A DNA stretch of 55,360 nt from Syntrophales bacterium. Lineage in GTDB: Bacteria; Desulfobacterota; Syntrophia; Syntrophales; JACQWR01. The notes beneath the pieces are model-generated. The model made no database searches. It was not told the DNA's origin and saw nothing but the letters and a program-made list of their open reading frames with translations. Location: NCBI GenBank assembly GCA_035283845.1, contig DATESZ010000264.1:1-55360 (forward strand), given 5' to 3'. Positions 1,367 to 20,188 of this stretch are shown here, one piece after another. The first letter of the stretch is position 1. The number at the start of each line of letters is the position of its first letter. A program made the position numbers and the translations under genes.

Positions 1367-1425
1367 GTTCAACAAAGGTTTCGAGCGGACGGGGTGAAGC
1401 TCCGCCGCTCAAACCGGCGTTATCC
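1367..1425 (+). repeat. attC-like folded repeat a (59 nt)
   Basis: GTTCAAC-AAA-GGTTT[C]GAGCGG[A]CGG-ggtgaagct-CCGCCGCTCAAACC-GGC-GTTATCC. The TTA of the right core is the stop of 1420..1599. Confidence 0.75.
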
Positions 1426-1599
1426 TAATATCAACTGCCGATGTTTCCACGCATCGTCGGCAAGCCCTTCGGCGTCCTCTACTGGTAATTTCCGCAACCT
1501 GTCATGTTGTCCGGTCTGACACGCGTCATCATAAATATTCGCCGCATAGGTAGCTAAAAATGTTACCGTAAAGTGTTCTTTAAATTCTTTTTCGTCCAT
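1420..1599 (-). CDS. Hypothetical cassette protein, 59 aa
   Basis: Internal ATG of ORF 1420..1776 preceded by GGGGGGAAG. The longer ORF-track start would read through repeat b. Confidence 0.6.
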   Translation of the reverse strand: MDEKEFKEHFTVTFLATYAANIYDDACQTGQHDRLRKLPVEDAEGLADDAWKHRQLILG

Positions 1600-1618
1600 A
1601 ATCTTCCCCCCATTAAAA

Positions 1619-1705
1619 GGATAACAATTAAATGAAGCGGAGCGGAAAGTCGCTCGTCGCGCCTCATTCTTGGGCTTTGGCCGCCCGCTTATTCCTGCGT
1701 TGTGT
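1619..1705 (+). repeat. attC-like folded repeat b (87 nt)
   Basis: GGATAAC-AATTA-AAT[G]AAGCGG[A]GCGG...CCGCCCGCTTATT-CCTGC-GTTGTGT. About 88% identical to repeat e. Confidence 0.75.
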
Positions 1706-1783
1706 AAAATAAAACCATAAACTGAAAGATGCCCACAAAGTGAAACAAAAAATCCCAGCACCAAGAAAGGCACCATAAAAAAG

Positions 1784-2227
1784 ATGACGGATACGATTGT
1801 TGGAGCACTTATCGGGGTCGGCAGTGCTATTCTCGGCGCGATTGTTGGAGCTTGGATCGGTTATCGACTCTCCATTTCTTTGGTTCATGTCACTACTCGA
1901 CACAATGCTGCGTCCAATTTGAGGAAAGCTTTCTATGACGAACTTGCCATCTTGAATATGAGCAGCCTTAAAGATATTGATGCCTGTTCTATGCTTGAGG
2001 GTGCTTTCAAGAAACATATGATCGCTTTTTGGGAACTCAAATCCACCTTGCCGAAAAGCAAATGCGTTGCTTTCACCCAGGCATGGGAAGAGTATTATTG
2101 TTATCCAGGAACAGGGGACCATCATCTTGAACAATACGACACACTTACTGGAGGCTCGGAACAGCGTAAGGGGAAAAGAACGCTTGCAATTAAACGGATT
2201 GAACATATTCTCTCCTTTACTGAATAA
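1784..2227 (+). CDS. Hypothetical membrane-anchored protein, 147 aa; the only plus-strand gene in the array
   Basis: ORF track. N-terminal hydrophobic helix (IVGALIGVGSAILGAIVGAWIG). More protein-like than the antisense ORF 1664..2245. No clear SD. Confidence 0.5.
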   Translation: MTDTIVGALIGVGSAILGAIVGAWIGYRLSISLVHVTTRHNAASNLRKAFYDELAILNMSSLKDIDACSMLEGAFKKHMIAFWELKSTLPKSKCVAFTQAWEEYYCYPGTGDHHLEQYDTLTGGSEQRKGKRTLAIKRIEHILSFTE

Positions 2228-2239
2228 ATGAAAAAGACC

Positions 2240-2298
2240 ACACAACCAAGCACTACAGCGGACAGGCTGATCGCCTGCCGCTGACCTTTGCGTTATGT
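2240..2298 (+). repeat. attC-like folded repeat c (59 nt)
   Basis: ACACAAC-CAAGC-ACT[A]CAGCGG[A]CAGGC-tgatc-GCCTGCCGCTGACC-TTTGC-GTTATGT. The right core holds the stop of 2293..2496. Confidence 0.8.
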
Positions 2299-2496
2299 TT
2301 CAAAATCCTTCAAAGTCATATGTCCCTGGCATACAAAAACAATGACAGAGAAGAAACAACATTCCCAATACGTGGGTTGGAGTATGGCAAAACGAGCGGG
2401 TACGTTCCATAAATAGTAATAACCAAACCACAATAATCCGCCCGTGGCTGCCCACCAGAAAATACAGTACAAAGCAAATGCAAAATATTTTAACAT
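2293..2496 (-). CDS. Hypothetical small membrane protein, 67 aa
   Basis: ORF track. Two hydrophobic segments rich in W/Y/F. The start codon is the CAT of the left core of repeat d. Confidence 0.5.
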   Translation of the reverse strand: MLKYFAFALYCIFWWAATGGLLWFGYYYLWNVPARFAILQPTYWECCFFSVIVFVCQGHMTLKDFET

Positions 2497-2580
2497 AACA
2501 AGCTCACTGAACCCGACCGGAATTACGTCCGGTGCGTTTCAGCCAAATCCGTGGCCAGCGGGTTATCTCTGGCGTTATCT
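2493..2580 (+). repeat. attC-like folded repeat d (88 nt)
   Basis: ACATAAC...AACCCG-ACCGGaattacgtCCGGT...CGGGTT-ATCTCTGGC-GTTATCT. The central ~60 nt are identical to repeat g. Confidence 0.7.
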
Positions 2581-2581
2581 A

Positions 2582-2788
2582 TCACTCAAGTACCCGATAG
2601 TTTTTAAGTGGAATCCATCGGCCCTTGTCCTCGATCATACACCCACCGAAAAAAGTCCATTCATGTTGTTTCCCTATACGGCTTGCCTGGCCATCGCATT
2701 CCATTTTTCCCGCGATAGGGATTAGTGCAAGAATTGCAAGAATTGCGACCGCTATGACCACTTCGATAATTGTAAATCCTTTCATCAT
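2582..2788 (-). CDS. Prepilin-type N-terminal domain protein (pilin/pseudopilin-like), 68 aa
   Basis: MMKGFTIIEVVIAVAILAILA matches the G-F-T-L-I-E prepilin cleavage/methylation motif plus a hydrophobic helix. AAGGAG SD lies before the ATG at 2788. Confidence 0.7.
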   Translation of the reverse strand: MMKGFTIIEVVIAVAILAILALIPIAGKMECDGQASRIGKQHEWTFFGGCMIEDKGRWIPLKNYRVLE

Positions 2789-2809
2789 CCGTCTCCTTTT
2801 AAATTTAAA

Positions 2810-3283
<474 letters not shown>

Positions 3284-3302
3284 CTAACTCCTTAAAATAA
3301 AA

Positions 3303-3362
3303 GCATAACAATTAGTTGCAGCGGACAGGCTAATCGCCGCGCCGCTGACCTTTGCGTTAGCT
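3303..3362 (+). repeat. attC-like folded repeat f (60 nt)
   Basis: GCATAAC-AATTA-GTT[G]CAGCGG[A]CAGGC...CCGCTGACC-TTTGC-GTTAGCT. The right core holds the stop of 3357..3545. Confidence 0.8.
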
Positions 3363-3545
3363 TCCGTAGCATCTTTTCCTTGGCCCTTTGCATCCCATAC
3401 ACGGGTTCTCTCCCTTATTTACAAGTCCCATCACAATCATTCCACCCAATAAACACGTTTTGGGAACGTACCCTTGTCCGATTGCCATTTGCAGATTAAT
3501 ATCGTCGCTGTCTGCTTCTATTTGACTAAAATAATGTGGTTTCAT
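3357..3545 (-). CDS. Hypothetical cassette protein, 62 aa
   Basis: Internal ATG of ORF 3357..3575 preceded by AGGAGAG. Confidence 0.55.
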   Translation of the reverse strand: MKPHYFSQIEADSDDINLQMAIGQGYVPKTCLLGGMIVMGLVNKGENPCMGCKGPRKRCYGS

Positions 3546-3566
3546 TCGATCTCTCCTTTCAAAAAT

Positions 3567-3649
3567 AAAGAACAATTCAACCCCGACCGGAATTACGTCC
3601 GGTGCGTTTCAGCCAAATCCGTGGCCAGCGGGTTATCTCTGCGTTATAT
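3567..3649 (+). repeat. attC-like folded repeat g (83 nt)
   Basis: AAAGAAC-AATTC-AAC[C]CCG-ACCGGaattacgtCCGGT...CGGGTT-ATCTCTGC-GTTATAT. Confidence 0.75.
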
Positions 3650-3654
3650 CCCGA

Positions 3655-3873
3655 TCATTTAAAGTACCGCAAGAAGCAATCGTAGCAGCATTCCTTGTCT
3701 TCATAAATACCATCAAGGCCAAGAATTACATGTTTACCGCACTTGAAGCACTTCCCCGTTAGTGGCAACGGTTCCGTCCCGACATTTGAGAACATTGCAT
3801 TAAAGTGGTCGGATATTCTTAACCTTTCTGCCTTTCCTACTTCCGACTCTTCCCATTGTCCTTGTGTTGGCAT
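3655..3873 (-). CDS. Hypothetical zinc-ribbon protein, 72 aa
   Basis: ORF track. CFKCGKH...CCYDCF cysteine pairs. AGGAGG SD. Confidence 0.6.
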   Translation of the reverse strand: MPTQGQWEESEVGKAERLRISDHFNAMFSNVGTEPLPLTGKCFKCGKHVILGLDGIYEDKECCYDCFLRYFK

Positions 3874-3896
3874 ATTGAATTCCTCCTAAAATACTG

Positions 3897-3982
3897 ATTT
3901 AACCAGTCACTACAGCGAACGGGGATCACACGCTGCGGCTTCCATCATGCCCGTGGCCCCGCCGCTGACCTTAGCGTTAGCA
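3897..3982 (+). repeat. attC-like folded repeat h (86 nt)
   Basis: ATTTAAC-CAGTC-ACT[A]CAGCGa[A]CGGGG...CCCCGCCGCTGACC-TTAGC-GTTAGCA. The left core fits RYYYAAC exactly. The right core holds the stop of 3977..4219. Confidence 0.8.
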
Positions 3983-4219
3983 TTTAGGACATGAAACTCG
4001 TTTGTTGTACGTTTGCCAGCCCATAAATGTCTTGATGCTTTGCCAAGGGTGATGTTCTAATTTCTTAATAAGTTCCACATTACATCTTTGGCATTTAGTA
4101 TGAAAATTAAGGCCATCATAAAAACATTCACCAACAATATGACCAAGGGAAAAACATAAAAGAATGCTAACAATTTTATCCAGCGGACGGGTAATTTCGT
4201 CCTGTGGTTTTTCATTCAT
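3977..4219 (-). CDS. Hypothetical Cys-rich protein, 80 aa, with a repeat-encoded N-terminal leader
   Basis: ORF track. The only start codon and SD (GGAGG) lie inside repeat i. The first 17 codons (MNEKPQDEITRPLDKIV) are shared with 10081..10608. Confidence 0.5.
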   Translation of the reverse strand: MNEKPQDEITRPLDKIVSILLCFSLGHIVGECFYDGLNFHTKCQRCNVELIKKLEHHPWQSIKTFMGWQTYNKRVSCPKC

Positions 4220-4254
4220 GTTCTACCTCCCCGCCGATGATAACGGCGTTATAT
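4165..4254 (+). repeat. attC-like folded repeat i (90 nt)
   Basis: TGCTAAC-AATTT-TAT[C]CAGCGG[A]CGGG...CCCGCCGATGATA-ACGGC-GTTATAT. nt 4168..4224 are identical to 10557..10613 in repeat o. Confidence 0.75.
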
Positions 4255-4497
4255 TCTGATACACCTTACTGCCGTCTCCTGCCCCAACGGGAACTCAAAG
4301 CACGATGACCACTTAGTGCAGCATCTCCTCGTATGCGGAACTGAATGTAGACATGTGTATCCCGCCATTTTGAAACATTTGTCAGCGTTGATACACCTTA
4401 CATCGGGCTTTAGTTTAAACCTCCTCCCTTTTTTTATTACAACGGCTTCCCCGATTTCTCCTTTTTCACCCGCAACATAATTCCTGATATTCCCCAT
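4249..4497 (-). CDS. Hypothetical cassette protein, 82 aa
   Basis: Internal ATG of ORF 4249..4557 preceded by GGAGGGG. The stop lies in the right core of repeat i. Confidence 0.5.
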   Translation of the reverse strand: MGNIRNYVAGEKGEIGEAVVIKKGRRFKLKPDVRCINADKCFKMAGYTCLHSVPHTRRCCTKWSSCFEFPLGQETAVRCIRI

Positions 4498-4513
4498 AAC
4501 CCCTCCAAAAACC

Positions 4514-4599
4514 AGATGACAATTAAATGAAGGCGACGGGAAGTTACTCCGTCGCATTCAGACACGCTCACCGTCCCGCGCCTTATTACTGCGTTAGCA
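4514..4599 (+). repeat. attC-like folded repeat j (86 nt)
   Basis: AGATGAC-AATTA-AAT[G]AAGGCG[A]CGGGA...TCCCGCGCCTTATT-ACTGC-GTTAGCA. Same plan as b and e, with compensatory changes. Confidence 0.75.
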
Positions 4600-4953
4600 T
4601 CACCACTTGATTAATAAACCCCAAAATTCCGACTCGTGCGTCTTTTCAAACCACACTCCCATATTTGCAAAACAAGAAAACCCATCTGCGTGGGCCAGCG
4701 TTTCTTGTTCTTCTGCCGTGAGCCATCTTCCTGCCAGGCATACGCCTCTCCAGTTAAGCGTGATCTCCTGCACTGATTTACAAACGCACTCTCCGATTTT
4801 ACGACACGCCTTCGTTCTGAGGCCGGTATAGAGGTAGAGTTTATCCCCCGGTTTTGGGTTCCTCCCGTCCCGCCGTTTCGCCCGGATCGTTTGTGTTTTT
4901 AACCCGGCTTCAACCAATGGCGCAAATTGCTTTTTAAATCCTAATAATGGCAT
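4600..4953 (-). CDS. ASCH-domain-like protein, 117 aa
   Basis: ORF track. N-terminal GFKKQFAPLVEAGLKTQTIR...PGDKLYLY resembles the ASCH beta-barrel signature (from memory). G-rich SD. Confidence 0.55.
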   Translation of the reverse strand: MPLLGFKKQFAPLVEAGLKTQTIRAKRRDGRNPKPGDKLYLYTGLRTKACRKIGECVCKSVQEITLNWRGVCLAGRWLTAEEQETLAHADGFSCFANMGVWFEKTHESEFWGLLIKW

Positions 4954-4983
4954 CTCTCCCCCCTATGCAAAAGATAATAAAAA

Positions 4984-5046
4984 TGCTAACAAATCGCTCC
5001 AGCGGAGTGCCAAAGGACCGGCACCCGCTGACCTTTGGCGTTATGA
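4984..5046 (+). repeat. attC-like folded repeat k (63 nt)
   Basis: TGCTAAC-AAATC-GCT[C]CAGCGG[A]GTGCC-aaaggacc-GGCACCCGCTGACC-TTTGGC-GTTATGA. The right core holds the stop of 5041..5208. Confidence 0.8.
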
Positions 5047-5208
5047 TTCATCATCTAATGGACAATCCCCCGGCATACAACAGGCATGCTGCCTCTGTAT
5101 ATCCCCTCTCACCAAGAGCAAGCTGCATTCCCCATCAAGATTCTGCCGGGAGGGAAGAAAACAAGGGCACATGCCGCAACTTGTTATTTTATCAGGCAAC
5201 TTTTTCAT
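5041..5208 (-). CDS. Hypothetical Cys-rich miniprotein, 55 aa (below ORF-track cutoff)
   Basis: Hand translation: MKKLPDKITSCGMCPCFLPSRQNLDGECSLLLVRGDIQRQHACCMPGDCPLDDES. GGAGGAG SD 3 nt before the ATG at 5208. Confidence 0.45.
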   Translation of the reverse strand: MKKLPDKITSCGMCPCFLPSRQNLDGECSLLLVRGDIQRQHACCMPGDCPLDDES

Positions 5209-5227
5209 AACTCCTCCATAAATAAAG

Positions 5228-5287
5228 ACATAACAATGAAATCAAGGCGACGGATTTTACTCCGCCTGCTCTTTCGCTGATTCCTGA
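5228..5287 (+). repeat. Degenerate attC-like repeat l (left half only)
   Basis: ACATAAC-AATGA-AATCAAGGCGACGGA...CGCTGATT. No GTTA right core before the exonuclease gene. Confidence 0.4.
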
Positions 5288-5309
5288 TACAGGTGGCTAT
5301 AAAACGCTC

Positions 5310-5939
5310 TCAGGAAGTCATCATTTTTTCGTAAATTGCCATTGTCGTTTTGATGTCTCTCAAACAGTGGTTATCTATCGCCTCGTAGTCCCCCATTAAC
5401 CAGAGTTGGTAAATCTCCGATCCATTGCCGCCGCCGTGCTGAACGCCCAAGAAATCAGCACACGAGGCCAAAGAAACATAGTCTTTAAAATCTGCCGCCC
5501 AGACCTTCATCAAGTCCGTCGTTAGATGCGGGTTGCCCCTCGGTATGGCGTTCCTTATTCCCGTGAGGCCATATTTTATGGCTTTTCTCCATATCCACGG
5601 CATGTCAAACGTGATGATATTCCATCCCACCAAGTGCAGCGGTTCATGCCATGCGCCTGCTATTTTATCAAAAGCCCCGGCTAAAAGCTCCATCGTTTCC
5701 CGTTCGTTTGCCCCTCGGATGATTTGGGCTTCCCCGCCTTCAAGGCAGAGGCCAACACAGAAGATTTCCCCCTTCATGCTGTTAAGGCTCTGCTTTTGGT
5801 ATTCATTCTCGACATTGGCTTCTTGATATGCCCTGATGGTTTCCGGCTTGGACATTGTGCCGGGAGCTTTTATATCTTCAGGGAGTGGCCTGGTCGGGCC
5901 GGGGGTAGATTCTATGTCCAGGAATAATTTTGGTATCAT
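5310..5939 (-). CDS. DnaQ-like 3'-5' exonuclease (PolB-exonuclease-related family), 209 aa
   Basis: ORF track. LFLDIESTP Exo I motif. Start overlaps the ERF stop (ATGA). Confidence 0.7.
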   Translation of the reverse strand: MIPKLFLDIESTPGPTRPLPEDIKAPGTMSKPETIRAYQEANVENEYQKQSLNSMKGEIFCVGLCLEGGEAQIIRGANERETMELLAGAFDKIAGAWHEPLHLVGWNIITFDMPWIWRKAIKYGLTGIRNAIPRGNPHLTTDLMKVWAADFKDYVSLASCADFLGVQHGGGNGSEIYQLWLMGDYEAIDNHCLRDIKTTMAIYEKMMTS

Positions 5940-6676
5940 GGTTGACCTCCGATATTATCCGGGACATCCTGCGGTTCTACGATGGTGATCGACACAAGAT
6001 TGTTTCCGTATTGACCTTTGACAAACGCGACCTTGACGGGAACGATATTTGCCGCCGCGCCGGATGCAATGAGGCTTAGGTCTTTCTTGAAAGTCTGATA
6101 AATATTCCCGTCTTCGTCTGTTATCCCGTACTTGACATACGGTTTACCCTTGTTCGCTCCGGCGGTTGACACCCCCGGCTTTTCCTCTACTGACTTGATG
6201 TAAACGGTTTTGGTTTCCTCGTTTCCGGCAAGGGCTGTTTTTTCGGCAGGCGGCTTTGTCGTTTTATTGTCGCCCACTCCTGCGCTCGCCGCGTTTCCGT
6301 CATCATCCTCCGGTGCTATTCCCACAATGGATTGTAGAGAATAACGCCGCAGGTAGGTTATGCAGCTTCCGATGGCCTGCGGGTCGCTTTTAACCGGCCT
6401 TGCCACAAGCCGCCCTCGCATCCACTCGCCGGAAGAATGGCAAAGCGTAGTATCTATGCAGACCATCTCCGGGTGTTCTGGTAGGAAATCTGCCGTTTGC
6501 ACAACGCTTAGTCCGTTGTTGGCAAGCGGCTTCCGGCACGCATCCCATACAGACGCAAGGTCGGCGTAGGAGCTTTTAAAGAAGGGGTTTTGGCTATCCT
6601 TTACGGCCCCCTCCATTATCCCCTGTGCTTTCGCCAGGGCGTCTGCTAATTTCCCTATTGTCTCTGATTGGCTCAT
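5936..6676 (-). CDS. ERF-family single-strand annealing recombinase, 246 aa
   Basis: Internal ATG with AAGGAG SD. IGKLADALAKAQ...NPFFKSSYADLASVWDACR is the remembered ERF N-terminal signature. Confidence 0.8.
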   Translation of the reverse strand: MSQSETIGKLADALAKAQGIMEGAVKDSQNPFFKSSYADLASVWDACRKPLANNGLSVVQTADFLPEHPEMVCIDTTLCHSSGEWMRGRLVARPVKSDPQAIGSCITYLRRYSLQSIVGIAPEDDDGNAASAGVGDNKTTKPPAEKTALAGNEETKTVYIKSVEEKPGVSTAGANKGKPYVKYGITDEDGNIYQTFKKDLSLIASGAAANIVPVKVAFVKGQYGNNLVSITIVEPQDVPDNIGGQP

Positions 6677-6713
6677 CGAAAAAACTCCTTGCTGATTTTG
6701 TAGGCACCTTCTT

Positions 6714-7040
6714 TCATAATTTATTCCCCGCAAAGGCATTTAGTATTGATCTCATCGGTTCTGTCACATGGGCGTTTAATTTTCCCGGCTCCTCTCCCGC
6801 TTCCCACGGCTCGGAAGTGAGGCACATGAAGTTTACCCCGGCCGCTAAGATTTCGTACCGCGTGGGCCACGCCTCATCGTGGAAGGTTTTTCTGCAATCT
6901 CCCCGAGAAAACAGGCGGAACAATGCCTCGCTATCTAGGTGGATACTGAAGCTGCTCACCCCAATACACCCCTCGGCGTGCAGCTCCGCATATTTTTTCG
7001 TTAACTCCAATGCCTTCGATATAAACTCTTGTTTTCCCAT
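6714..7040 (-). CDS. Hypothetical protein, 108 aa
   Basis: ORF track. Contains the 34-nt segment (6789..6822, LTSEPWEAGEE) duplicated at 9757..9790. Confidence 0.6.
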   Translation of the reverse strand: MGKQEFISKALELTKKYAELHAEGCIGVSSFSIHLDSEALFRLFSRGDCRKTFHDEAWPTRYEILAAGVNFMCLTSEPWEAGEEPGKLNAHVTEPMRSILNAFAGNKL

Positions 7041-7060
7041 TTTCCGCCTCCCTCGTTAAA

Positions 7061-7748
7061 TTATTCCCCCGCCTTTGAGTAGTCGCTCAACAACAAGCTC
7101 GGCTGGAATGGCTTGCTCAGATGGGCGCCCTTTTTTAAATTATCTATTGCCCACAGTGGTTGTAAATTCTTTAGCGCCCACGCCCGCCTGAAATCTAAGT
7201 CATCCGGTGTCTCGAAGTTGAAGGCAGACAGCGGGATCTTATGATCAATATGCCATTCTCCCCTGTTTTCCCAAGTCATACCCGGCTTGAACTTCTTTGC
7301 CAGGTGCTTCATTAATTGATCTAAGGTAAAATCCACTAGCGACTCCCAGCGCCGACCGTTTTTGCTCCCGTCAAGCGATTCCCAGATAGAGCGGCGCATC
7401 CCTTCGTTAAGACTCCCTTTCGGGGTTGGCATTGGCCCATGCTTGGCAGCGTCCCCTGTGCGCTTCGGGGTTACGACTGTAGTATTCTTTGTGTCTTGCC
7501 AGGGTAATGTCGCGATTTTGCGTATAATATTTTTTGCGATGCCGACTCGCGGCGGCCGCGTGGTTTTTCCAGTAAACCCTTGACCAGATATTTATGCAAT
7601 CCTTGCATCTATTGCCGCTCCATGAGTAAAAATCACAGATTTTCTTTGTCCCTTTGCATTTTGAGCATCTTTTTTCTATCCCAATAGAAGGACTTGCATT
7701 TAGGACACCTTCGCACGTCTGAGCTTCTAGCAACCCACTCATGATCAC
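7061..7748 (-). pseudogene. HNH endonuclease split by a frameshift (ORFs 7407..7748 and 7061..7432)
   Basis: The N-terminal Cys-rich, Y/N-repeat part and the C-terminal WHIDHKIP...NLQPLWAIDNLKKG HNH part lie in different frames and overlap by 26 nt. In related phage HNH genes (from memory) these form one protein. Confidence 0.65.
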
Positions 7749-7816
7749 ACCTCTTGCATATGATTTTGGTAATTTTGATTTTCATGGGTTATATGTATGC
7801 TCCATAAGTAAGATTG

Positions 7817-8101
7817 TCAAGAGTTATTATAGTCGCATCCGTGAGCGGCGATCCCCTTTTCCTTCCGCCCCATCACCATGCAGTCTTCGGGGTGATATTC
7901 TGAGCGTTCCAGCTCGGCGCTCTGGCTGTCCAGTTTAAGCTCTTGCGAGTGGAAGAAATCGCCCGCAAAAACGATCAGATCAACGGCTTCCGCCTCTGCC
8001 GTTTCAACGATAAAGTTCAGGCACTTTTCGCATTCCTTAATATCTTTGTCCCGTAGGTGGGCGTCGGCAAAATGGAGTAGCTTCATGATATTATTACCCA
8101 C
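7817..8101 (-). pseudogene. Truncated calcineurin-like/SbcD-type metallophosphoesterase fused to a duplicated 25-aa tail
   Basis: MKLLHFADAHL and GDFFH motifs only. Homology ends after ~60 aa and continues into ERSEYHPEDCMVMGRKEKGIAAHGC, which is shared with 10081..10608. Confidence 0.55.
7835..7910. repeat. 76-bp dispersed direct repeat, copy 1 (copy 2 at 10105..10180)
   Basis: gcatccgtgagcggcgatcccc...ggggtgatattc[t/g]gagcgttcc, 75/76 identical. Confidence 0.9.
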
Positions 8102-8340
8102 CCTTCCTTTAACCCGTAAACAGGGCCTCTAAGAATGTAGTTTATGGGCATGTGCCAGATGTACCCCGTATATTCAAGAGGGGCTCCGGCTTTCATTTCC
8201 TCGCCGCTATATTTCGTCTCTTCGAGCTGTAGGTCATCCCCCACCTTAAAGCCTCTATCATCAAAGCGTATTTCAAACCGCTTGCCCATATCTGCCGTTG
8301 CCCGGAAGGCTTCTGTATCTGTCTTTAATATGTGTTTCAT
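8083..8340 (-). CDS. DUF3850/ASCH-like protein, 85 aa
   Basis: MKHILKTDTEAFRA...KRFEIRFDDRGFKVGD...YILRG...GLKEGWVIIS matches the remembered DUF3850 pattern. GGAGGTG SD. Confidence 0.7.
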   Translation of the reverse strand: MKHILKTDTEAFRATADMGKRFEIRFDDRGFKVGDDLQLEETKYSGEEMKAGAPLEYTGYIWHMPINYILRGPVYGLKEGWVIIS

Positions 8341-8344
8341 GGCT

Positions 8345-8932
8345 TCACCTCCACCCTTCTGCTCGGTTTCCAGGGATAAAAAATAACTCCCAAAAGGCCG
8401 TAAGTCTGATCTTCTCGTAATCGGCCCTGGCGGGCTTCTCGATCTTCTCGTAATCGGCCCTGGCAGGATTCTCGATCTTCTCGTAATCGGCCCTGGCAGG
8501 ATTCCTGATCTTCTCGTAATCGGCCCTGGCAGGATTCTCGATCTTCTCGTAATCGGCCCTGGCAGGATTCTCGATCTTCTCGTAATCGGCCCAGGCGGAC
8601 TTCCTGATCTTCTCGTAATCGGCCAAGGCGGAGGGAGATAAAAGCCCAAGCGGAATCCCCATCAGATAAAACTTTCCTGTCTTTATCGCCTCGGCAATCA
8701 CCACGGGAAATTTGCTAGGGGAAGAAAAATCTGTGCACTCTTTTTTCACCCCCTTGCCGTCCAACTCATAAAAGAAATCAATCGCTCCGTGTCCGACAAA
8801 ATCATCGGGCGTGGTGTGCTGCTGTAATTTTTTCCCTCGTTTAGAATTATAAATATCGTCATAGGTGAGGAAAAGGATTTCTGTGGCGCCGTCTGTTCGT
8901 CGCACCTCTTTCCAGCTGATAAATACGCACAT
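8345..8932 (-). CDS. Hypothetical protein with C-terminal ADYEKIENPAR tandem repeats, 195 aa
   Basis: ORF track. GGAGGG SD. About seven 11-aa repeats. Confidence 0.6.
   Translation of the reverse strand: MCVFISWKEVRRTDGATEILFLTYDDIYNSKRGKKLQQHTTPDDFVGHGAIDFFYELDGKGVKKECTDFSSPSKFPVVIAEAIKTGKFYLMGIPLGLLSPSALADYEKIRKSAWADYEKIENPARADYEKIENPARADYEKIRNPARADYEKIENPARADYEKIEKPARADYEKIRLTAFWELFFIPGNRAEGWR
8408..8630. repeat. 33-bp tandem repeat, ~6.7 copies
   Basis: Unit gatcttctcgtaatcggccctggcaggattctc starts at 8408, 8441, 8474, 8507, 8540, 8573 and 8606. Confidence 0.9.
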
Positions 8933-8935
8933 GGC

Positions 8936-9271
8936 TCATCCCTCCATAGCAAAAGGGACGTCCTGCCCGCCCGCAATGTCCTGGACGCGGAAAGGCTCCC
9001 CGGTTGATGTCCTAATCATCCCCTCAACGCTTGCCATCATGCGGCCGGATACGTTAGGGTCGCGCACAATCTGAGCGGGAAGCCAGTCCACCTTTGCCGC
9101 CTGAGCAAGCCGGTCGAGCCCTTGCTTGTGGATTCTTACCGGCTCCACGATCAGGGCGAACCCCGGCGCGATATCCGCGGGGCTGGTTCCCGTGGGGATG
9201 AGCATATGGCAGCCCTTGGACTCAAACTCCTTTAACCTCTGGTACGCTGTTTTCTGTGATTGATCTGTCAT
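8936..9271 (-). CDS. Hypothetical protein, 111 aa
   Basis: ORF track. GGGAGG SD. Confidence 0.65.
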   Translation of the reverse strand: MTDQSQKTAYQRLKEFESKGCHMLIPTGTSPADIAPGFALIVEPVRIHKQGLDRLAQAAKVDWLPAQIVRDPNVSGRMMASVEGMIRTSTGEPFRVQDIAGGQDVPFAMEG

Positions 9272-9273
9272 GA

Positions 9274-9426
9274 TAATAACCTCCCACCGGTTAGGTTGGG
9301 GAAGGCCCCGCTGCCTGCCCTAGAGCAGACAACGGGTGGGGATGGCCTTCCGTATTAGTCTTTGCGATCTCCCATTAACCGCGCTGGTCTTATGTAATGC
9401 CGCGTGCGGCATATCTCTCGTTATCT
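9274..9426 (+). repeat. Long composite attC-like repeat m (~153 nt)
   Basis: TAATAAC...CGGTTA/TAACCG, GGAAGGCC/GGCCTTCC and ATGCCGC/GCGGCAT stems...ATCTCTC-GTTATCT. The right core holds the stop of 9421..9573. Confidence 0.5.
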
Positions 9427-9573
9427 ACCATTACAAACGGATTCTTTCTGGGGACGTATTTTTAGAAGACGATCCACTGCTTCTGGTGTTAGGTACACTT
9501 CCTCCCCACTACAATCATAACATCCATCGAACTCGATATGTAAGTCTCCGTCTAAATCCCATTCTATTTTCAT
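9421..9573 (-). CDS. Hypothetical cassette protein, 50 aa
   Basis: Internal ATG of ORF 9421..9621 with GAGGA 8 nt upstream. Confidence 0.45.
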   Translation of the reverse strand: MKIEWDLDGDLHIEFDGCYDCSGEEVYLTPEAVDRLLKIRPQKESVCNGR

Positions 9574-9603
9574 GTTCTCATCCTCAAATCTCCTAAAATA
9601 ACA

Positions 9604-9669
9604 AGATAACAAAGCGCTCAAGACGGACGTGGCATACAGCCGCCACGCCGCTTAGATTGAGCGTTCCCT
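9604..9669 (+). repeat. attC-like folded repeat n (66 nt)
   Basis: AGATAAC-AAAGC-GCTCAAgaCGG[A]CGTGGC-atacagcc-GCCACGCCGcttagaTTGAGC-GTTCCCT. Confidence 0.65.
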
Positions 9670-9744
9670 ACCACCAATAACCAAATGCTCCGTTATTCCT
9701 ATATGCAACTTCGCGCCCTCCGCCGTTTCATGCGCTCTTCTAAA

Positions 9745-9921
9745 CTAAACATGGGTCTCCTCTCCCGCTTCCCACGGCTCGGAAGTGAGGAACGCCCGGA
9801 CGCCATCGATAAGCTCGTCCAAGTTGTTCGTGCTGATAACATTGGTATGGCCCGAATAGGCGTTGTACCTGCCGAAATTGTTATCCCGGCCCCCGTCGCT
9901 TATGGTTAGATTTTTAGTCAT
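9745..9921 (-). CDS. Hypothetical protein, 58 aa
   Basis: Internal ATG overlapping the stop of 9914..10081 (ATGACTAA). The C-terminus carries the duplicated LTSEPWEAGEE segment. Confidence 0.5.
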   Translation of the reverse strand: MTKNLTISDGGRDNNFGRYNAYSGHTNVISTNNLDELIDGVRAFLTSEPWEAGEETHV

Positions 9922-10081
9922 GGGTTTTCCCCAGCTTTTTAGTGGGCAACCTGCCCTTTCCGTCAATCTTACATTTGGGACATTTGCGCCGCCGTATTGC
10001 ATGCATGAGCGGATACTCTTCGCGACAAGCATAATTTCGGCACCGTACCCACTTTATATCAAAACAAGACACATACCACAT
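9914..10081 (-). CDS. Hypothetical zinc-ribbon protein, 55 aa
   Basis: Internal ATG overlapping the stop of 10081..10608 (TAATG). CRNYAC...CPKC. Confidence 0.5.
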   Translation of the reverse strand: MWYVSCFDIKWVRCRNYACREEYPLMHAIRRRKCPKCKIDGKGRLPTKKLGKTHD

Positions 10082-10608
10082 TATTCCCCTACCTCCTTGT
10101 ACTGGCATCCGTGAGCGGCGATCCCCTTTTCCTTCCGCCCCATCACCATGCAGTCTTCGGGGTGATATTCGGAGCGTTCCGGTTCGTAGTCATTCGCCCA
10201 CTTAAACGGTATTTCGTGTAGCTCTTTACCGCAATAACAGCAGAACCCCATGCCATTTTCAGAGGGTGTCCCCTCGATTATGCAATGGAGTTGACCGCAT
10301 TCTGTTGACCAGCTCCCCTCTTCGTCCGCTGTCCAGGAGCACCCCTGCCCCGGCCTATTTTCACCCATTTTAACCAGAGGTTCCTCTGTGTACTCTTTTT
10401 TTACGTAAAGCATGCCTGTCTTGTGATCTTCAATACACCAAGACTTTTTTGCTATATGCTTAGCTATTATCATTAAGGTTCTGATGTTATTGCTCACCCC
10501 CTGCCAGTGCCAATAAACAGAGTATGGCCCCTTGGTACGAAGCGAATAACGGGGCATAACAATTTTATCCAGCGGACGGGTAATTTCGTCCTGTGGTTTT
10601 TCATTCAT
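10081..10608 (-). CDS. Hypothetical protein, 175 aa, with a repeat-encoded leader and the duplicated C-terminal tail
   Basis: The ATG at 10608 with GGAAGGAAG SD lies inside repeat o. An alternative ATG lies in the GTTATG core (MPRYSL...). Confidence 0.55.
   Translation of the reverse strand: MNEKPQDEITRPLDKIVMPRYSLRTKGPYSVYWHWQGVSNNIRTLMIIAKHIAKKSWCIEDHKTGMLYVKKEYTEEPLVKMGENRPGQGCSWTADEEGSWSTECGQLHCIIEGTPSENGMGFCCYCGKELHEIPFKWANDYEPERSEYHPEDCMVMGRKEKGIAAHGCQYKEVGE
10105..10180. repeat. 76-bp dispersed direct repeat, copy 2
   Basis: 75/76 identical to 7835..7910. Confidence 0.9.
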
Positions 10609-10643
10609 GTTCTTCCTTCCCGCCGCTGACCTTTGCGTTATAT
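10554..10643 (+). repeat. attC-like folded repeat o (90 nt)
   Basis: GCATAAC-AATTT-TAT[C]CAGCGG[A]CGGG...CCCGCCGCTGACC-TTTGC-GTTATAT. Confidence 0.8.
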
Positions 10644-10858
10644 TACTGATGACCATCTAAACCTTCGTTCCAAGTATTAACCCCAGGATTTTCTACATCT
10701 CCGTTATTTCTTATATCGGCAAATGACCAATCTTCATCCCCGTCGACGTGTAGGGAAAAAGAAATTTCACCGTCTTTTGGTAATTCAGGATGATTGGTTT
10801 CCCGAAGTATTTTTTGGACTGCATCAGCTATTTCTCGTTTTTGTCTTACTGAAAACAT
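10643..10858 (-). CDS. Hypothetical acidic protein, 71 aa
   Basis: ORF track. GGGAGGTG SD. Confidence 0.65.
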   Translation of the reverse strand: MFSVRQKREIADAVQKILRETNHPELPKDGEISFSLHVDGDEDWSFADIRNNGDVENPGVNTWNEGLDGHQ

Positions 10859-10879
10859 GCGCCACCTCCCTTATAAAAA

Positions 10880-10942
10880 ATATAACCAGTCACTAAAGCG
10901 GCGTGAGGCTGTTTGCCACGCCGCTTACCTTGGGCGTTATGT
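10880..10942 (+). repeat. attC-like folded repeat p (63 nt)
   Basis: ATATAAC-CAGTC-ACT[A]AAGCGGCGTG-aggctgtttgc-CACGCCGCTTACC-TTGGGC-GTTATGT. Confidence 0.8.
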
Positions 10943-10953
10943 GACAAAATCCC

Positions 10954-11112
10954 TCACTCATATTCAGTGCAATCATGGTTCTCGTGTTTCGCGCAATATT
11001 CACAAAAACCTTCGCGCCCGCAAATATCGCAAGTGCTTGTGTCATCCGAGCCATCAGGGTTTTTTATCTGCTCGCAACATACATGACAAAAACCTCTATC
11101 TTCGTCTCTCAT
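10954..11112 (-). CDS. Hypothetical Cys-rich miniprotein, 52 aa
   Basis: Internal ATG of ORF 10954..11136 with GAGGGA SD. CHVCC...CDICG...CEYC. Confidence 0.5.
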   Translation of the reverse strand: MRDEDRGFCHVCCEQIKNPDGSDDTSTCDICGREGFCEYCAKHENHDCTEYE

Positions 11113-11132: not shown

Positions 11133-11221
11133 GCATAACCAGTCACTGAACCCGCCCGGGGAATTCCGGTCTGGGTTTTCCGTCAAGGCTTAGGCCCCGG
11201 CGGGTTATCTCTACGTTATAT
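11133..11221 (+). repeat. attC-like folded repeat q (89 nt)
   Basis: GCATAAC-CAGTC-ACTG-AACCCGCC[C]GGGG...CCCCGGCGGGTT-ATCTCTAC-GTTATAT. Confidence 0.75.
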
Positions 11222-11458
11222 TTAAAATTCATCAACCAGTTCATCAAATGGGCGTCCCGTGCGTATTGCTTCGGCGGATAGGTGGAGAAAAACGCGTGGG
11301 CTAAATTTACGAACCTTTTCATATCTTTCATTGCCCTTACGGATATCGTGCAGAACCATATAATCTAACGCCTTCAGGTGGTCAGCGTGGAGGACAACCG
11401 CATCGTCACGGTGTAGTTCCCATGCCTCGTATGTTTTAGCATTATATGGGTTACTCAT
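11222..11458 (-). CDS. Hypothetical protein, 78 aa
   Basis: ORF track. GGAGGA SD. Preferred over the overlapping ORF 11143..11331. Confidence 0.65.
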   Translation of the reverse strand: MSNPYNAKTYEAWELHRDDAVVLHADHLKALDYMVLHDIRKGNERYEKVRKFSPRVFLHLSAEAIRTGRPFDELVDEF

Positions 11459-11534
11459 TCCAGTCCTCCATTAAAAGAATAAGATCATCTTTTGTATATG
11501 GTTGTTTTTTACTTGGTTTTCTCCAAAAAACAGA

Positions 11535-11583
11535 AAACAACTTAATCCAGCCCGTGGCCCGGCGGGTTATCCTTGCGCTATAC
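11535..11583 (+). repeat. Short attC-like repeat r (49 nt)
   Basis: AAACAAC-TTAAT-CC-AGCCCG-tggcccgg-CGGGTT-ATCCTTGC-GCTATAC. The GCTA variant of the right core supplies the TAG stop of 11578..11763. Confidence 0.5.
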
Positions 11584-12106: not shown

Positions 12107-12135
12107 ATCATACACCCGTCAAATGTGTTTGTCAA
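12107..12135 (-). promoter_or_regulatory. Early-left promoter (PL-like)
   Basis: Minus strand TTGACA (12135..12130), 17 nt, TATGAT (12112..12107). Confidence 0.6.
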
Positions 12136-12177: not shown

Positions 12178-12205
12178 TTGACATATATATTGACTTGTGT
12201 ATAAT
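12178..12205 (+). promoter_or_regulatory. Early-right promoter (PR-like)
   Basis: TTGACA (12178..12183), 16 nt, TATAAT (12200..12205), 30 nt upstream of the HTH gene. Confidence 0.65.
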
Positions 12206-12454: not shown

Positions 12455-12802
12455 ATGCGAAAAGAAGTACGCGAACGCATCCTATTAAAATGCAAAGGGA
12501 AGTGCGTCGAATGCGGTGCTGTTGAACACCCTGAAGTAGATCATATCATCCCATTAGCCCGAGGCGGAAGGCATGATGAAGATAACTTCCAAATCCTCTG
12601 CAAAAAATGCAATCTCAAAAAGGGAAAAGGGATAGATTATTCTAAGTATGTTAAAATGGGTAAATCTCCAGAATACATAGAGGTTAACCAATCAATACTT
12701 GAAACTGATTTTTTCCGCCGAGGTTCTAAATTTGTAGCGATGCAATTAGAGTCGTGGCACAGACAAAACAATGCTCTTTTTGAGGTTAATAATGGCGGTT
12801 GA
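12455..12802 (+). CDS. HNH endonuclease, 115 aa
   Basis: ORF track. CVECG...EVDHIIPLARGG...NFQILCKKCNLKKG. Confidence 0.85.
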   Translation: MRKEVRERILLKCKGKCVECGAVEHPEVDHIIPLARGGRHDEDNFQILCKKCNLKKGKGIDYSKYVKMGKSPEYIEVNQSILETDFFRRGSKFVAMQLESWHRQNNALFEVNNGG

Positions 12803-13550
12803 CGGATGGGTTAAAATCCATAGGATATTATCTCTTGACCAAATATGGACAGCCGAACCATTTACGCGAGGGCAGGCGTGGGTTGACTTGATCCTTTTAG
12901 CTAACCATGTTCCTGGGGCAATAAGGGCCAGGGGTGTCTATATTAATATAGACCGTGGACAGGTAGGTTGGTCTGAGGTGAAACTCGCTGAACGATGGAG
13001 GTGGTCAAGAGATAAAGTAAGAAGATGGTTGTCGGAATTGGAAAAAAAGGAGCACAAGATAATACAGCAGAAAAACAACGTAACCAGTTTAATTACAATA
13101 ATAAAATACGATTTGTATCAGTCCAGCGATACAGCAAACGATACAGCAAACGATACAGCAGAAAAACAGCAGAAAAACAGCAGACAAGACACTAACAAGA
13201 ATGTAAAGAATGTAAAGAATGTAAAGAATAAAACATATACGTCTGATTTTATCTCTTTTTGGGACTGCTATCCAAAGAAGGTTGCAAAAGATGCGGCATG
13301 GAAGTCATGGCAGAAAAGAAACGGCGAAAGGCCGGACATTGCCGTTCTTATTTCCGCAGTTGAAAACCAGAAGAAAAGCGAGCAATGGGCAAAAGACGGA
13401 GGCCAGTTTATCCCTCACCCAGCGAGTTGGTTAAACCAGGGCCGCTGGGACGATGAGGCCCCTGCACAAGAAAACAACAGTGCGCTCGATAGGAACGATC
13501 CCGTTTTTAAGTCCTGGTACTACGGAGATAAAAAAGATGAACATCAGTGA
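12792..13550 (+). CDS. Replication initiator-like protein (winged-helix N-domain), 252 aa
   Basis: ATG with GAGG SD. VGWSEVKLAERWRWSRDKVRRWLSELE. Contains internal iterons, as in lambda O. Confidence 0.6.
   Translation: MAVDGWVKIHRILSLDQIWTAEPFTRGQAWVDLILLANHVPGAIRARGVYINIDRGQVGWSEVKLAERWRWSRDKVRRWLSELEKKEHKIIQQKNNVTSLITIIKYDLYQSSDTANDTANDTAEKQQKNSRQDTNKNVKNVKNVKNKTYTSDFISFWDCYPKKVAKDAAWKSWQKRNGERPDIAVLISAVENQKKSEQWAKDGGQFIPHPASWLNQGRWDDEAPAQENNSALDRNDPVFKSWYYGDKKDEHQ
13128..13230. repeat. Iteron cluster (candidate origin) inside the replication gene
   Basis: gatacagcaaac x3 (13128, 13140, 13152), cagcagaaaaa x2-3 and aatgtaaaga x3, followed by an AT-rich stretch. Confidence 0.6.
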
Positions 13551-19591: not shown

Positions 19592-20188
19592 ATGACCAAG
19601 CATCAGCAATCGCTTAACCACCCCCAGAAGGGGTCTCGGATAACCGTTGACCCTATTAGAAGTCTCGAAGACATAAACGAGATCAAGCTGCTACTGAGGA
19701 ATGATCCGCTTTATCTTTGTCTTTTCACTCTAGGGATAAACACAGGATTGCGTGCTTCGGACTTACTCCATATTACGGCGGGGCAGGTCAAGGATTTATC
19801 CCCGATGGACGAGTTGTGTTTGAACAAGCGTAAGACCGGCAATGGTCGGAGGATGAATTTAAACTCGGCCTGTGTTGATGCGATACATTCTCTTTTGGCT
19901 AGCAGGGGGTATCTTGACGAAGAAGTCTTGTTTATTGGGCAGCGGGGGCCGTTGACTGTTTCGTCTGTGAATCGGTTGTGGAAAAGGTGGGCGAGGCAAT
20001 GTGGGATTCGGGGGAACTTCGGCAGTCATTCTGCCAGAAAGACTTTTGGCTATCATCAGCGCGCGACCTTTGGGGTGTGCCTGCCCGAGCTGATGCGGGT
20101 GTTTGGGCATTCAAGTGAACGGCAAACCCTTGCCTACATAGGCATCCAGGATGAGACGATAAAGAACATTTACGCAAACACACTATAA
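19592..20188 (+). CDS. Tyrosine recombinase, catalytic domain only, 198 aa
   Basis: ATG with GGAG SD. Catalytic motifs TGLRASDL (R), HSARKTF (HxxR), VFGHSS (H) and LAYIG (Y). No N-terminal core-binding domain of normal length. Confidence 0.85.
   Translation: MTKHQQSLNHPQKGSRITVDPIRSLEDINEIKLLLRNDPLYLCLFTLGINTGLRASDLLHITAGQVKDLSPMDELCLNKRKTGNGRRMNLNSACVDAIHSLLASRGYLDEEVLFIGQRGPLTVSSVNRLWKRWARQCGIRGNFGSHSARKTFGYHQRATFGVCLPELMRVFGHSSERQTLAYIGIQDETIKNIYANTL

Follow-up and report, generated by a model that had tools for sequence, protein, structure and literature searches.

The DNA analysed here, called the window, is the 55,360-base contig DATESZ010000264.1, filed under a Syntrophales bacterium (assembly GCA_035283845.1). 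It is a complete circular phage genome with a 141-nt overlap between its termini. Public contigs of 55.3-55.6 kb turn up across ENA, JGI and Logan in many samples, the names of which indicated no habitat or host, and are 99.9-100% identical wherever they were compared. The right-hand 35 kb carries the terminase with SU10-like portal and adaptors. The early region left of 12.1 kb is read on the − strand and contains genes for an ERF annealing protein and a 3′-5′ exonuclease together with many small open reading frames (ORFs). In this early region lie 15 sites of the attC type known from integron cassettes. As judged by sequence comparison, the + strand is the attC top strand of all 15 sites and nearly every ORF of the array lies on the other strand; the bulged arm is therefore ORF-distal and the array is read 'backwards'.

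The 15 sites are imperfect hairpins of 59-90 nt, located between 1367 and 11221 and all on the + strand, where each reads xxTAAC-(9 nt)-NAGCGG-A-stem...stem-CCGCTN-(8 nt)-GTTAT, with a 6-bp box that is usually NAGCGG and a variable loop. The core triplets are AAC in 14 of the 15 sites (GAC in S10) and GTT in all 15. Pairing of the L box (positions 10-15 after AAC) is shifted by +1 and that of the next helix (17-21) by +2, and two bases are bulged on the 5′ arm of the + strand, at positions 9 and 16 after AAC. Two covariance models were built: R1, from 14 window sites, and R2, from ten short canonical attCs oriented by genes or intI (long attCs were left out of R2, being misaligned by MAFFT). 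Against the 55-kb window, R1 gave 15 strong matches of 45-86 bits, all on the + strand, namely the 14 training sites plus the untrained S7, and no match in the other 44 kb of the genome, outside 1.37-11.2 kb. The intact sites form two blocks, one of 11 sites (1.37-5.05 kb) and one of four (9.6-11.2 kb), which flank the ERF/exonuclease module, and two or three decayed half-sites lie at block edges. The sites, including these relics, are as follows.

1367-1425, + strand: S1, leftmost site (R1 45.2 bits; R2 55.8 bits on + against 14.8 on −)
1619-1705, + strand: S2, with R′ = GTTGTGT (R1 82.5 bits; GTTGTGT also precedes the homologous cassette in contig L141)
2240-2298, + strand: S3, the repeat c of the initial annotation (R1 52.7, R2 44.0 bits)
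2493-2580, + strand: S4 (R1 66.7 bits; 60 identical nt in common with S7)
2810-2896, + strand: S5 (R1 86.1 bits; 88% identical to S2)
3303-3362, + strand: S6 (R1 53.7, R2 36.6 bits)
3563-3649, + strand: S7, with a shortened 5′ spacer (R1 56.6 bits, outside the training alignment)
3897-3982, + strand: S8 (R1 66.3 bits)
4165-4254, + strand: S9 (R1 75.7 bits; 91% identical to S14)
4514-4599, + strand: S10, with GAC for AAC in R″ (R1 75.2 bits; shift profile +1/+2)
4984-5046, + strand: S11 (R1 46.7, R2 44.3 bits; 5′ arm 21/22 against the Smithella sp. UBA2180 integron attC, locus L099)
5229-5290, + strand: S12, relic half-site with R″, L″ and stem and without the 3′ arm (sequence inspection; no R1 match)
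9604-9669, + strand: S13, first site of the second block (R1 45.6, R2 29.0 bits)
10554-10643, + strand: S14, paralogue of S9 (R1 81.3 bits)
10880-10942, + strand: S15 (R1 47.6, R2 31.8 bits)
11133-11221, + strand: S16 (R1 59.7 bits)
11528-11583, + strand: S17, degenerate, with a 3′ half only, like S4/S7/S16 (R1 12 bits, E = 1.7; repeat family D3)

The sites combine R″ (RYYYAAC) and R′ (GTTRRRY) cores, an L″/L′ hairpin with an unpaired spacer and bulges on the AAC arm, a covariance-model match and, from comparative evidence, a crossover at G|TT, by which TTRRRY goes with the downstream cassette, and as such they are attCs. IntegronFinder defines an attC-site cluster that lacks an integron integrase (CALIN) as at least two attCs on one strand, <4 kb apart, with no intI nearby (PMC4889954), and the two blocks, with 11 and four intact sites all on the + strand, are CALINs in this sense. 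A complete integron is not present: the 55-kb genome encodes no intI homologue, and the only strong promoters stand at the opposite end and read the bottom strand. No attI was recognised, which is a weak test as attI sites are not conserved.

Between the sites, the − strand carries ~14 small ORFs with GGAGG-type ribosome-binding sites, one per inter-site interval, and public gene calls on identical contigs agree with them. These ORFs, the single ORF of opposite orientation and the promoters are listed below.

1420-5208, − strand: first block of bottom-strand ORFs (ORF list, upstream GGAGG, public gene calls and family matches), made up of the next six lines
1420-1599, 3357-3545 and 3655-3873, − strand: small ORFs
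2293-2496, − strand: 67-aa ORF, uncalled by public gene callers
2582-2788, − strand: ORF with a prepilin-like N-terminus (family match)
2891-3280, − strand: Dam-like methyltransferase fragment (family match)
3977-4219, 4249-4497 and 5041-5208, − strand: small ORFs
4600-4953, − strand: ORF of phrog_8581 (family match)
9421-9573, 10081-10608, 10643-10858, 10954-11112 and 11222-11458, − strand: second block of bottom-strand ORFs (ORF list, GGAGG, gene calls and codon usage)
1700-2292, + strand: canonical cassette, comprising a 5′ leader, ORF 1784-2227 and S3 as its own attC, ending with the G of G|TTA
12107-12135, − strand: leftward sigma-70-type promoter TTGACA-17-TATGAT (consensus scan, 11/12), which would transcribe the whole array
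12178-12205, + strand: rightward promoter of perfect consensus (consensus scan, 12/12)

By the consensus scan these two divergent promoters, at 12.1-12.2 kb, are the only strong ones of the window. When the ORF content of the window intervals was assessed by coverage, 8/13 had a bottom-strand ORF, 0/13 a top-strand ORF and 5/13 were ambiguous; the canonical layout, in which an ORF on the top strand is followed by its attC, occurs in the window at 1700-2292 alone. Six of the − strand ORFs, or seven with the uncalled 67-aa ORF, stop at the TAA complementary to the TTA in G|TTA (those with left-hand coordinates 1420, 2293, 2891, 3357, 3977, 4249 and 5041). In a wider tally 39 ORFs stop at the R′ TAA and ~6 read on into the site; some sharing of stops with R′ is expected from frame statistics. 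On the mRNA each site is followed by a U-rich leader and a ribosome-binding site. The pattern is not that of an intrinsic terminator, the GC stem being ~15 nt from the U-rich leader. In S9 the − strand of the variable centre supplies ORF 3977-4219 with its ribosome-binding site, start codon and first 17 codons. The otherwise unrelated ORFs of S9 and S14 have a common N-terminus, MNEKPQDEITRPLDKIV, of 17 codons, with the ATG and the ribosome-binding site in the centre of the site.

The strand of the sites was judged by four tests independent of the ORFs: the position of the bulges, the behaviour of R1 on canonical sites, that of R2 on the window, and base composition. For the bulges, references oriented by genes or intI were the class 1 array of phage P1 MH445380 (estX-psp-aadA2-cmlA1-aadA1-qacH), the Vibrio anguillarum repeats beside intIA, and sites of a Methylococcaceae and a Smithella metagenome-assembled genome (MAG). 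In canonical attCs the extra bases are on the arm carrying 5′-AAC, and the class 1 and Vibrio sites also shift towards the 5′ arm. This agrees with the published geometry, in which the top strand has its extrahelical bases on the AAC arm and the recombined bottom strand has them opposite it (Nivina et al. 2016, PMC5027507). The + strand bulges of the window, at 9 and 16, are those of the top strand in estX and in the Methylococcaceae and Smithella MAG sites (L097 and L099). Applied to canonical sites, R1 recovered, in each case on the coding strand, 7/7 class 1 attCs in phage P1 MH445380 and the three of phage TJE1, and in Smithella and delta-proteobacterial integrons it found attCs on the strand reading away from intI. 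In the reverse comparison, R2 found six short window sites on the + strand at 29-56 bits, against a best − strand score of 14.8 bits; its matches to the long window sites were partial, weak and on the + strand, because the R2 model is short. Furthermore, the GC skew of the window sites on the + strand is negative, like that of class 1 sites. An initial annotation, made from the letters alone, had held that the ORFs lie opposite the attC top strand, that their stops overlap the right-hand core and that the array is read backwards from 12.1 kb. The bulges and both models bear out the first point, the six or seven ORFs with an R′ TAA the second, and a predicted consensus leftward promoter (12135-12107) the third; the possibility it had raised of normal geometry on the − strand is refuted by the R2 scores.

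The sole + strand ORF of the array, 1784-2227, encodes 147 aa with an N-terminal hydrophobic segment, and codon usage prefers it over an overlapping − strand ORF chosen by some gene callers. A protein 62% identical is encoded in contig L141 (Logan SRR27370448), whose ORFs are all top-strand, each with an attC after it. At the nucleotide level, homology between the window and L141 (67-80 matches per 100 columns) runs from the G|TTGTGT of the preceding, unrelated site to the GTTA of the cassette's own attC and not beyond. The gene is thus bounded by two crossover points, as expected of the one canonical cassette that the initial annotation had seen there. S2 alone ends in GTTG because its TTGTGT belongs to the next, canonical cassette. 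A protein identical to the 147-aa one is filed under a Syntrophales MAG. L141 (1-4022) also carries a cassette for a 496-aa AAA_15/AAA_21 ATPase and one for a 427-aa protein, both of which look like anti-phage defence cargo.

Recombination between sites was sought in related sequences. One contig of 2.5 kb from another sample (L135; JGI 3300025009, Ga0209416_1012738) consists of the S3 body, then GCGTTATGT, then the DNA that follows S15; that is, window 55143-2298 is joined to 10943-11075, without 2299-10942 and the ERF and exonuclease genes therein. It also has a 5-nt deletion at 1540-1544, and may represent a viable deletion mutant or a defective subpopulation. The junction lies inside the shared GTTATGT core, where only 9 nt are common, though other site pairs share 50-60 identical nt, and it is what a deletion by recombination of S3 with S15 in the R′ core would be expected to leave. 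Pairs of contigs with breakpoints were inspected by eye, since BLAST alignments run on through the consensus of the family. The viral contigs L009 and L088, which are nearly identical, agree leftward as far as G|TTATGC, left of which they have different attCs and flanks; the pair L019/L052 was set aside as uninformative, its differences lying outside sites. Taken as sequence comparisons, the informative junctions appear to fit the canonical crossover at G|TT of R′. In one viral contig (L053 8697-10070, and L066), an attC array stands directly after genes of a phage-type integrase and an AlpA-like excisionase; the L053 array has a GTTAGGT core at the left edge of its first cassette and therefore lies at the end of a prophage.

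No IntI is encoded in the window: tblastn with IntI1 and Vibrio IntIA over the complete circular genome found none, while the same search found a full IntI in the delta-proteobacterial MAG L106 and a partial one in L099. The one tyrosine recombinase found, by Pfam, NCBIfam and PHROGs, is the following.

19592-20188, + strand: 198-aa tyrosine recombinase, catalytic domain only (Pfam PF00589; phrog_216 at 1.6e-38)

It is without an N-terminal domain, reaches at best 56 bits with NCBIfam, where the cut-off is 220, and is far below the Xer cut-offs. No integron-integrase family was among its matches, so that it is not an IntI, a protein of ~320 aa with an N-terminal core-binding domain and an IntI-specific insertion, and the fetched flanks of the other viral arrays contain no homologue of it. 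No other recombinase domains were found in the large structural ORFs scanned. It is therefore unlikely to be the enzyme for the sites. Its gene is located upstream of the terminase region in what otherwise resembles an SU10-like podovirus, and no prophage copy or attachment site was seen.

Sites of the same type do occur beside intI. An exact-pattern scan with one genome per species gave 12 loci, in Verrucomicrobiota, Acidobacteriota, Methylococcaceae, Cyanobacteria, Smithella, delta-proteobacterial MAGs and others, of which 7/12 also match R1 as attCs and two have intI beside them, these being in a Smithella MAG and a delta-proteobacterial MAG. The latter (L106) encodes, on the reverse complement at 6002-7711, a full-length IntI that is 46% identical to IntI1; its first cassette contains two convergent small ORFs, one per strand, and has an attC of the same subtype as S3/S6. 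A Syntrophales-type host with its own integron is plausible on sequence grounds, because the identical 147-aa protein is in a Syntrophales MAG and a Smithella attC matches S11 at 21/22. That the sites are a REP-like dispersed repeat is not supported: the remaining 44 kb contain no copy, and those genome-collection matches that were checked further proved to be attCs, in two cases beside intI. The initial annotation had noted the absence of IntI and the lone 198-aa recombinase, both of which hold for the whole genome, and had allowed for a REP-like family, which finds no support. It had left the choice between a host integrase and a new recombinase/site pairing. The former, acting in trans, is favoured because the sites score as ordinary attCs, the same type occurs beside intI, junctions are in R′ and other arrays have, in the flanks fetched, no homologue of the 198-aa recombinase; the new pairing finds no support in the sequence.

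The reversed arrangement is not confined to the window. Two pattern scans of IMG/VR gave at least ~200 stretches, the second set not overlapping with the first. The first set contained 155 R1 sites; a contig usually had several of them, nearly all sharing a strand, and R2 gave the same strands as R1 in 32 loci; strands in the second set were called with nhmmer profiles, which were never at odds with the covariance model. When the longest ORF on each strand was compared between neighbouring sites, the first set had 39 bottom-strand and four top-strand cassettes in 28 non-redundant loci (20 loci against one), and the second, among the matches listed, had 17 and three (14 loci against three). Together, with the same restriction on the second set, there are 56 bottom-strand and seven top-strand cassettes, and polarity is reversed in 34/38 decidable independent viral loci. 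Many intervals were ambiguous, and the classified counts are therefore lower bounds. The controls gave 12 top-strand cassettes and one bottom-strand cassette (class 1 5/0, TJE1 2/0, Vibrio 4/1, Smithella 1/0). Viral arrays adjoin phage primase, helicase, RecE-like, SbcD-like and PhoH genes on the same strand as the cassette ORFs. Phage P12002L, considered as a cultured example, gave no significant model match. On this sampling, reversed polarity looks like the common form in viral contigs.

Phage CALINs have been described before: IntI1 recombines phage attCs at G|TTRRRY and uses chiefly their bottom strand, and the published figures show clusters of two to four sites, with the cassettes of TJE1 and PH101 in the usual layout (Qi et al. 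2023, Front Microbiol, PMC9892861). The window resembles these clusters in having attC cassettes in a phage genome without intI, and the TJE1 cluster is matched by both models; however, TJE1 has its ORFs on the attC top strand, whereas the window has 15 sites and ~14 bottom-strand ORFs in an early operon. Reversed polarity is unmentioned in that work (PMC9892861), and no description of attC arrays with bottom-strand genes was found in the literature searched, which left most subscription journals outside, so that an earlier description is possible.

With canonical integron cassettes (class 1, Vibrio) the window shares R″/R′, an unpaired spacer, L boxes, a pair of extrahelical bases separated by 6 bp, a variable loop and G|TT boundaries. 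It differs from them in lacking intI, a recognisable attI and a cassette promoter (Pc) at an attI end, in being transcribed from the opposite end along the bottom strand, and in having the ORF on the strand recombined by IntI. Inverted cassettes, mostly of toxin-antitoxin genes, are a minority in canonical arrays and depend on their own promoters. Those of chromosomal integrons likewise have their ORF on the attC bottom strand, and the first cassette of L106 contains one such ORF; in the window, by contrast, reversed cassettes are the rule, are apparently promoterless and would be read through from one phage promoter. In the inverted Vibrio cholerae integron (PMC13108822) the bottom strands are on the lagging-strand template, as they would be here if forks leave ~12 kb. 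That case, however, is a laboratory inversion of a whole array relative to replication, whereas in the window the genes stay co-directional with transcription, and probably with replication, and site polarity alone is reversed relative to the genes.

The arrangement is probably that of a phage CALIN in a leftward early operon, served in trans by the IntI of a host, in which the polarity of the cassettes is reversed. We infer, from sequence comparison, IntI as the enzyme, the host as its supplier and the reason for the reversal. The − strand, which is the coding and mRNA-like strand, has the geometry of the recombinogenic bottom strand, with AAC on the 5′ arm and the two extrahelical bases opposite. 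A host-supplied IntI, probably from a Syntrophales-type bacterium carrying an integron, would fold the − strand and cut at AA|C, in many cassettes directly after the TAA stop. Along the − strand the mobile unit would then be C, the attC, the U-rich leader, the ribosome-binding site, the ORF and TAA, and G|TT would be the point at which the array could lose or gain cassettes or trade them with other arrays. Since attC polarity, not gene orientation, sets the orientation of insertion, an ordinary bacterial cassette would land antisense to phage transcription, as the 147-aa gene lies, and phage-type cassettes would be expressed.

Two reasons for the reversal may be considered, of which we would prefer the first. 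The relevant features are the following.

12771-13550, + strand: replication initiator / DnaD-like loader (PHROGs phrog_270, phrog_2514)
near 12 kb: minimum of the cumulative GC skew (composition profile)

Given this initiator gene and the skew minimum, replication forks probably leave the ~12-13 kb region. Reversed sites would then let the genes be co-directional with both transcription and replication while keeping the bottom strands on the lagging-strand template, the hyper-recombinogenic position, which promotes the folding of attCs and the excision of cassettes (Richard et al. 2024, Sci Adv, PMC13108822). Alternatively, the reversal might act as an expression barrier, by which the host and phage cassette pools would be mutually silent. 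A separate proposal, that the array was made by empty cassettes inserting at TAA-C stops, which read GTTA on the other strand and fit the GWT consensus of genomic sites (attG; Loot et al.), finds no support, there being no GTTRRRY relic left of any R″.

Several observations weigh against a reversed, host-served array. The difference in folding energy between the strands is nil for the window sites (−0.03 kcal/mol) and is uninformative, and the direction of replication is read from a skew that transcription alone could cause. The evidence on the host (MAG binning, attC similarity) is weak, the 3′ arm motif being found in several phyla. A single contig shows the L135 junction, which, with 9 bases in common, could also stem from a microhomology event. 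Other breakpoints are away from R′: L053 and L066 diverge in the 3′ arm, and L051 and L059 inside a neighbouring ORF; these untidy breakpoints may reflect other recombination routes or metagenome assembly across repeats. S9 and S14 are alike in the 5′ arm and centre but not in the 3′ arm, a pattern unexplained by canonical IntI exchange. Among dozens of public contigs that are 99.9-100% identical there is no cassette turnover, the differences being the number of a 33-bp repeat and a few point differences only; recombination is therefore rare or variants are lost. Finally, homologues of the phrog_8581 cassette gene in other phages and prophages are in tight operons without any site.

Three other explanations were weighed, of which the strongest is nevertheless unlikely. 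It takes the hairpins as portable homology for ERF/RecE-like swapping, or as punctuation that stabilises or processes mRNA, with attC ancestry incidental. The position of ERF and exonuclease genes in mid-array, the RecE-like and SbcD-like genes flanking other arrays, the several breakpoints inside sites or neighbouring ORFs, the leader and ribosome-binding site after each site and the ORF starts encoded by S9 and S14 would all suit it. Neither homology nor RNA function, however, needs conserved AAC...GTT cores, fixed bulges and uniform polarity, and these are kept in dozens of unrelated viral contigs; moreover, the L135 junction falls in a 9-nt core despite the 50-60-nt identities elsewhere, and the boundaries of the canonical cassette are the exact IntI crossover points.

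Somewhat more doubtful still is a different recombinase, either the 198-aa protein or an unrecognised one, with a preference opposite to that of IntI, for which the − strand would be the functional 'top', with the ORF first, the site after it and the crossover at the far end. Such an enzyme would account for a genome that lacks IntI yet encodes a tyrosine recombinase, for a − strand reading that mimics a canonical cassette (an ORF stop in TAAC, then a hairpin) and for the loss of S9/S14 homology exactly at the + strand R″. Yet the clean junctions are in R′ rather than R″, the sites score as ordinary attCs of a type that stands beside intI in bacterial MAGs, and the 198-aa protein itself is a catalytic domain of the common phrog_216 family, far below the Xer cut-offs and with no integron-integrase match, with no homologue near other arrays in the fetched flanks. 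The least probable of the three, an inert relic of an integron fragment captured once and carried passively, its polarity without function, would agree with the invariance of cassettes among dozens of near-identical contigs and with the decay of S12, S17 and the 5′ end of S7, but 15 sites are structurally full, the compact ORFs come with ribosome-binding sites and run in the direction of the early promoter, the same polarity in 34/38 viral loci (with the restriction on listed matches given above) is unexpected from random capture, and the cassette genes include typical phage early genes, not bacterial cargo.

Besides the host-served array thus preferred, the early region contains the following genes free of sites.

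5310-9271, − strand: site-free early genes between the two blocks (Pfam/PHROGs matches; no R1 match)
5310-5939, − strand: 3′-5′ exonuclease (Pfam/PHROGs)
5936-6676, − strand: ERF annealing protein (Pfam/PHROGs)
7061-7432, − strand: endonuclease VII-like (Pfam/PHROGs)
8345-8932, − strand: repeat-containing ORF, between the two blocks

Near and distant BLAST of the array found no similar GenBank phages, and searches based on ERF in viral and metagenome collections gave distant or short relatives only, one of which (L107) was checked and is without sites. Structure-specific nuclease genes adjoin hairpin-site arrays, for example the endonuclease VII-like gene of the window and an SbcD-like gene in L012 (6253-7146), and their products could process extruded hairpins. 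ORF 8345-8932 contains, at 8373-8669, seven tandem 33-bp repeats that encode 11-residue repeats (ADYEKIENPAR-like); their copy number varies between otherwise identical contigs of different samples, and this is the main variable locus of the phage. Two pairs of dispersed direct repeats, 7827-7916/10097-10186 (93% identical) and 6789-6825/9757-9793 (97%), encode common C-terminal segments (…ERSEYHPEDCMVMGRKEKGIAAHGC and …TSEPWEAGEE) of otherwise different − strand ORFs, and may be traces of past module fusion. Directly left of S1, at 139-1302 (−), is a TnpB/OrfB gene of the IS200/IS605 family with HTH_OrfB, OrfB_IS605 and Cas12f1-like TNB domains and without TnpA; in attC polarity it has the position of the first cassette's content.

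In integrons the integrase recombines the bottom strand, so that the gene enters on the top strand and is readable from Pc. The array described here is a natural system that turns this orientation rule round, and in viral contigs such reversal looks common. We tentatively suggest, as a possibility that falls short of being likely, that phage early regions widely carry a polarity-reversed cassette system in which the coding strand is folded and cut by IntI, often directly after the stop codon, with a phage-specific pool of cassettes, a host integrase and rapid shuffling of accessory genes. If so, host integrases may drive the exchange of phage accessory genes, and the genes being shuffled would probably serve counter-defence. 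The phage and bacterial pools would be incompatible in expression, phage cassettes being silent in a host integron and host cassettes silent in the phage, as the 147-aa gene appears to be, and integron surveys would misread a large pool of phage cassettes wherever they take the customary gene orientation for granted. A small genome would offer a test of how attC polarity is linked to replication and transcription. Such arrays may even show cassettes being made, as ordinary phage genes occur with and without flanking attCs, and because the same phage genes are found in both states, the finding bears on the unsolved origin of cassettes.

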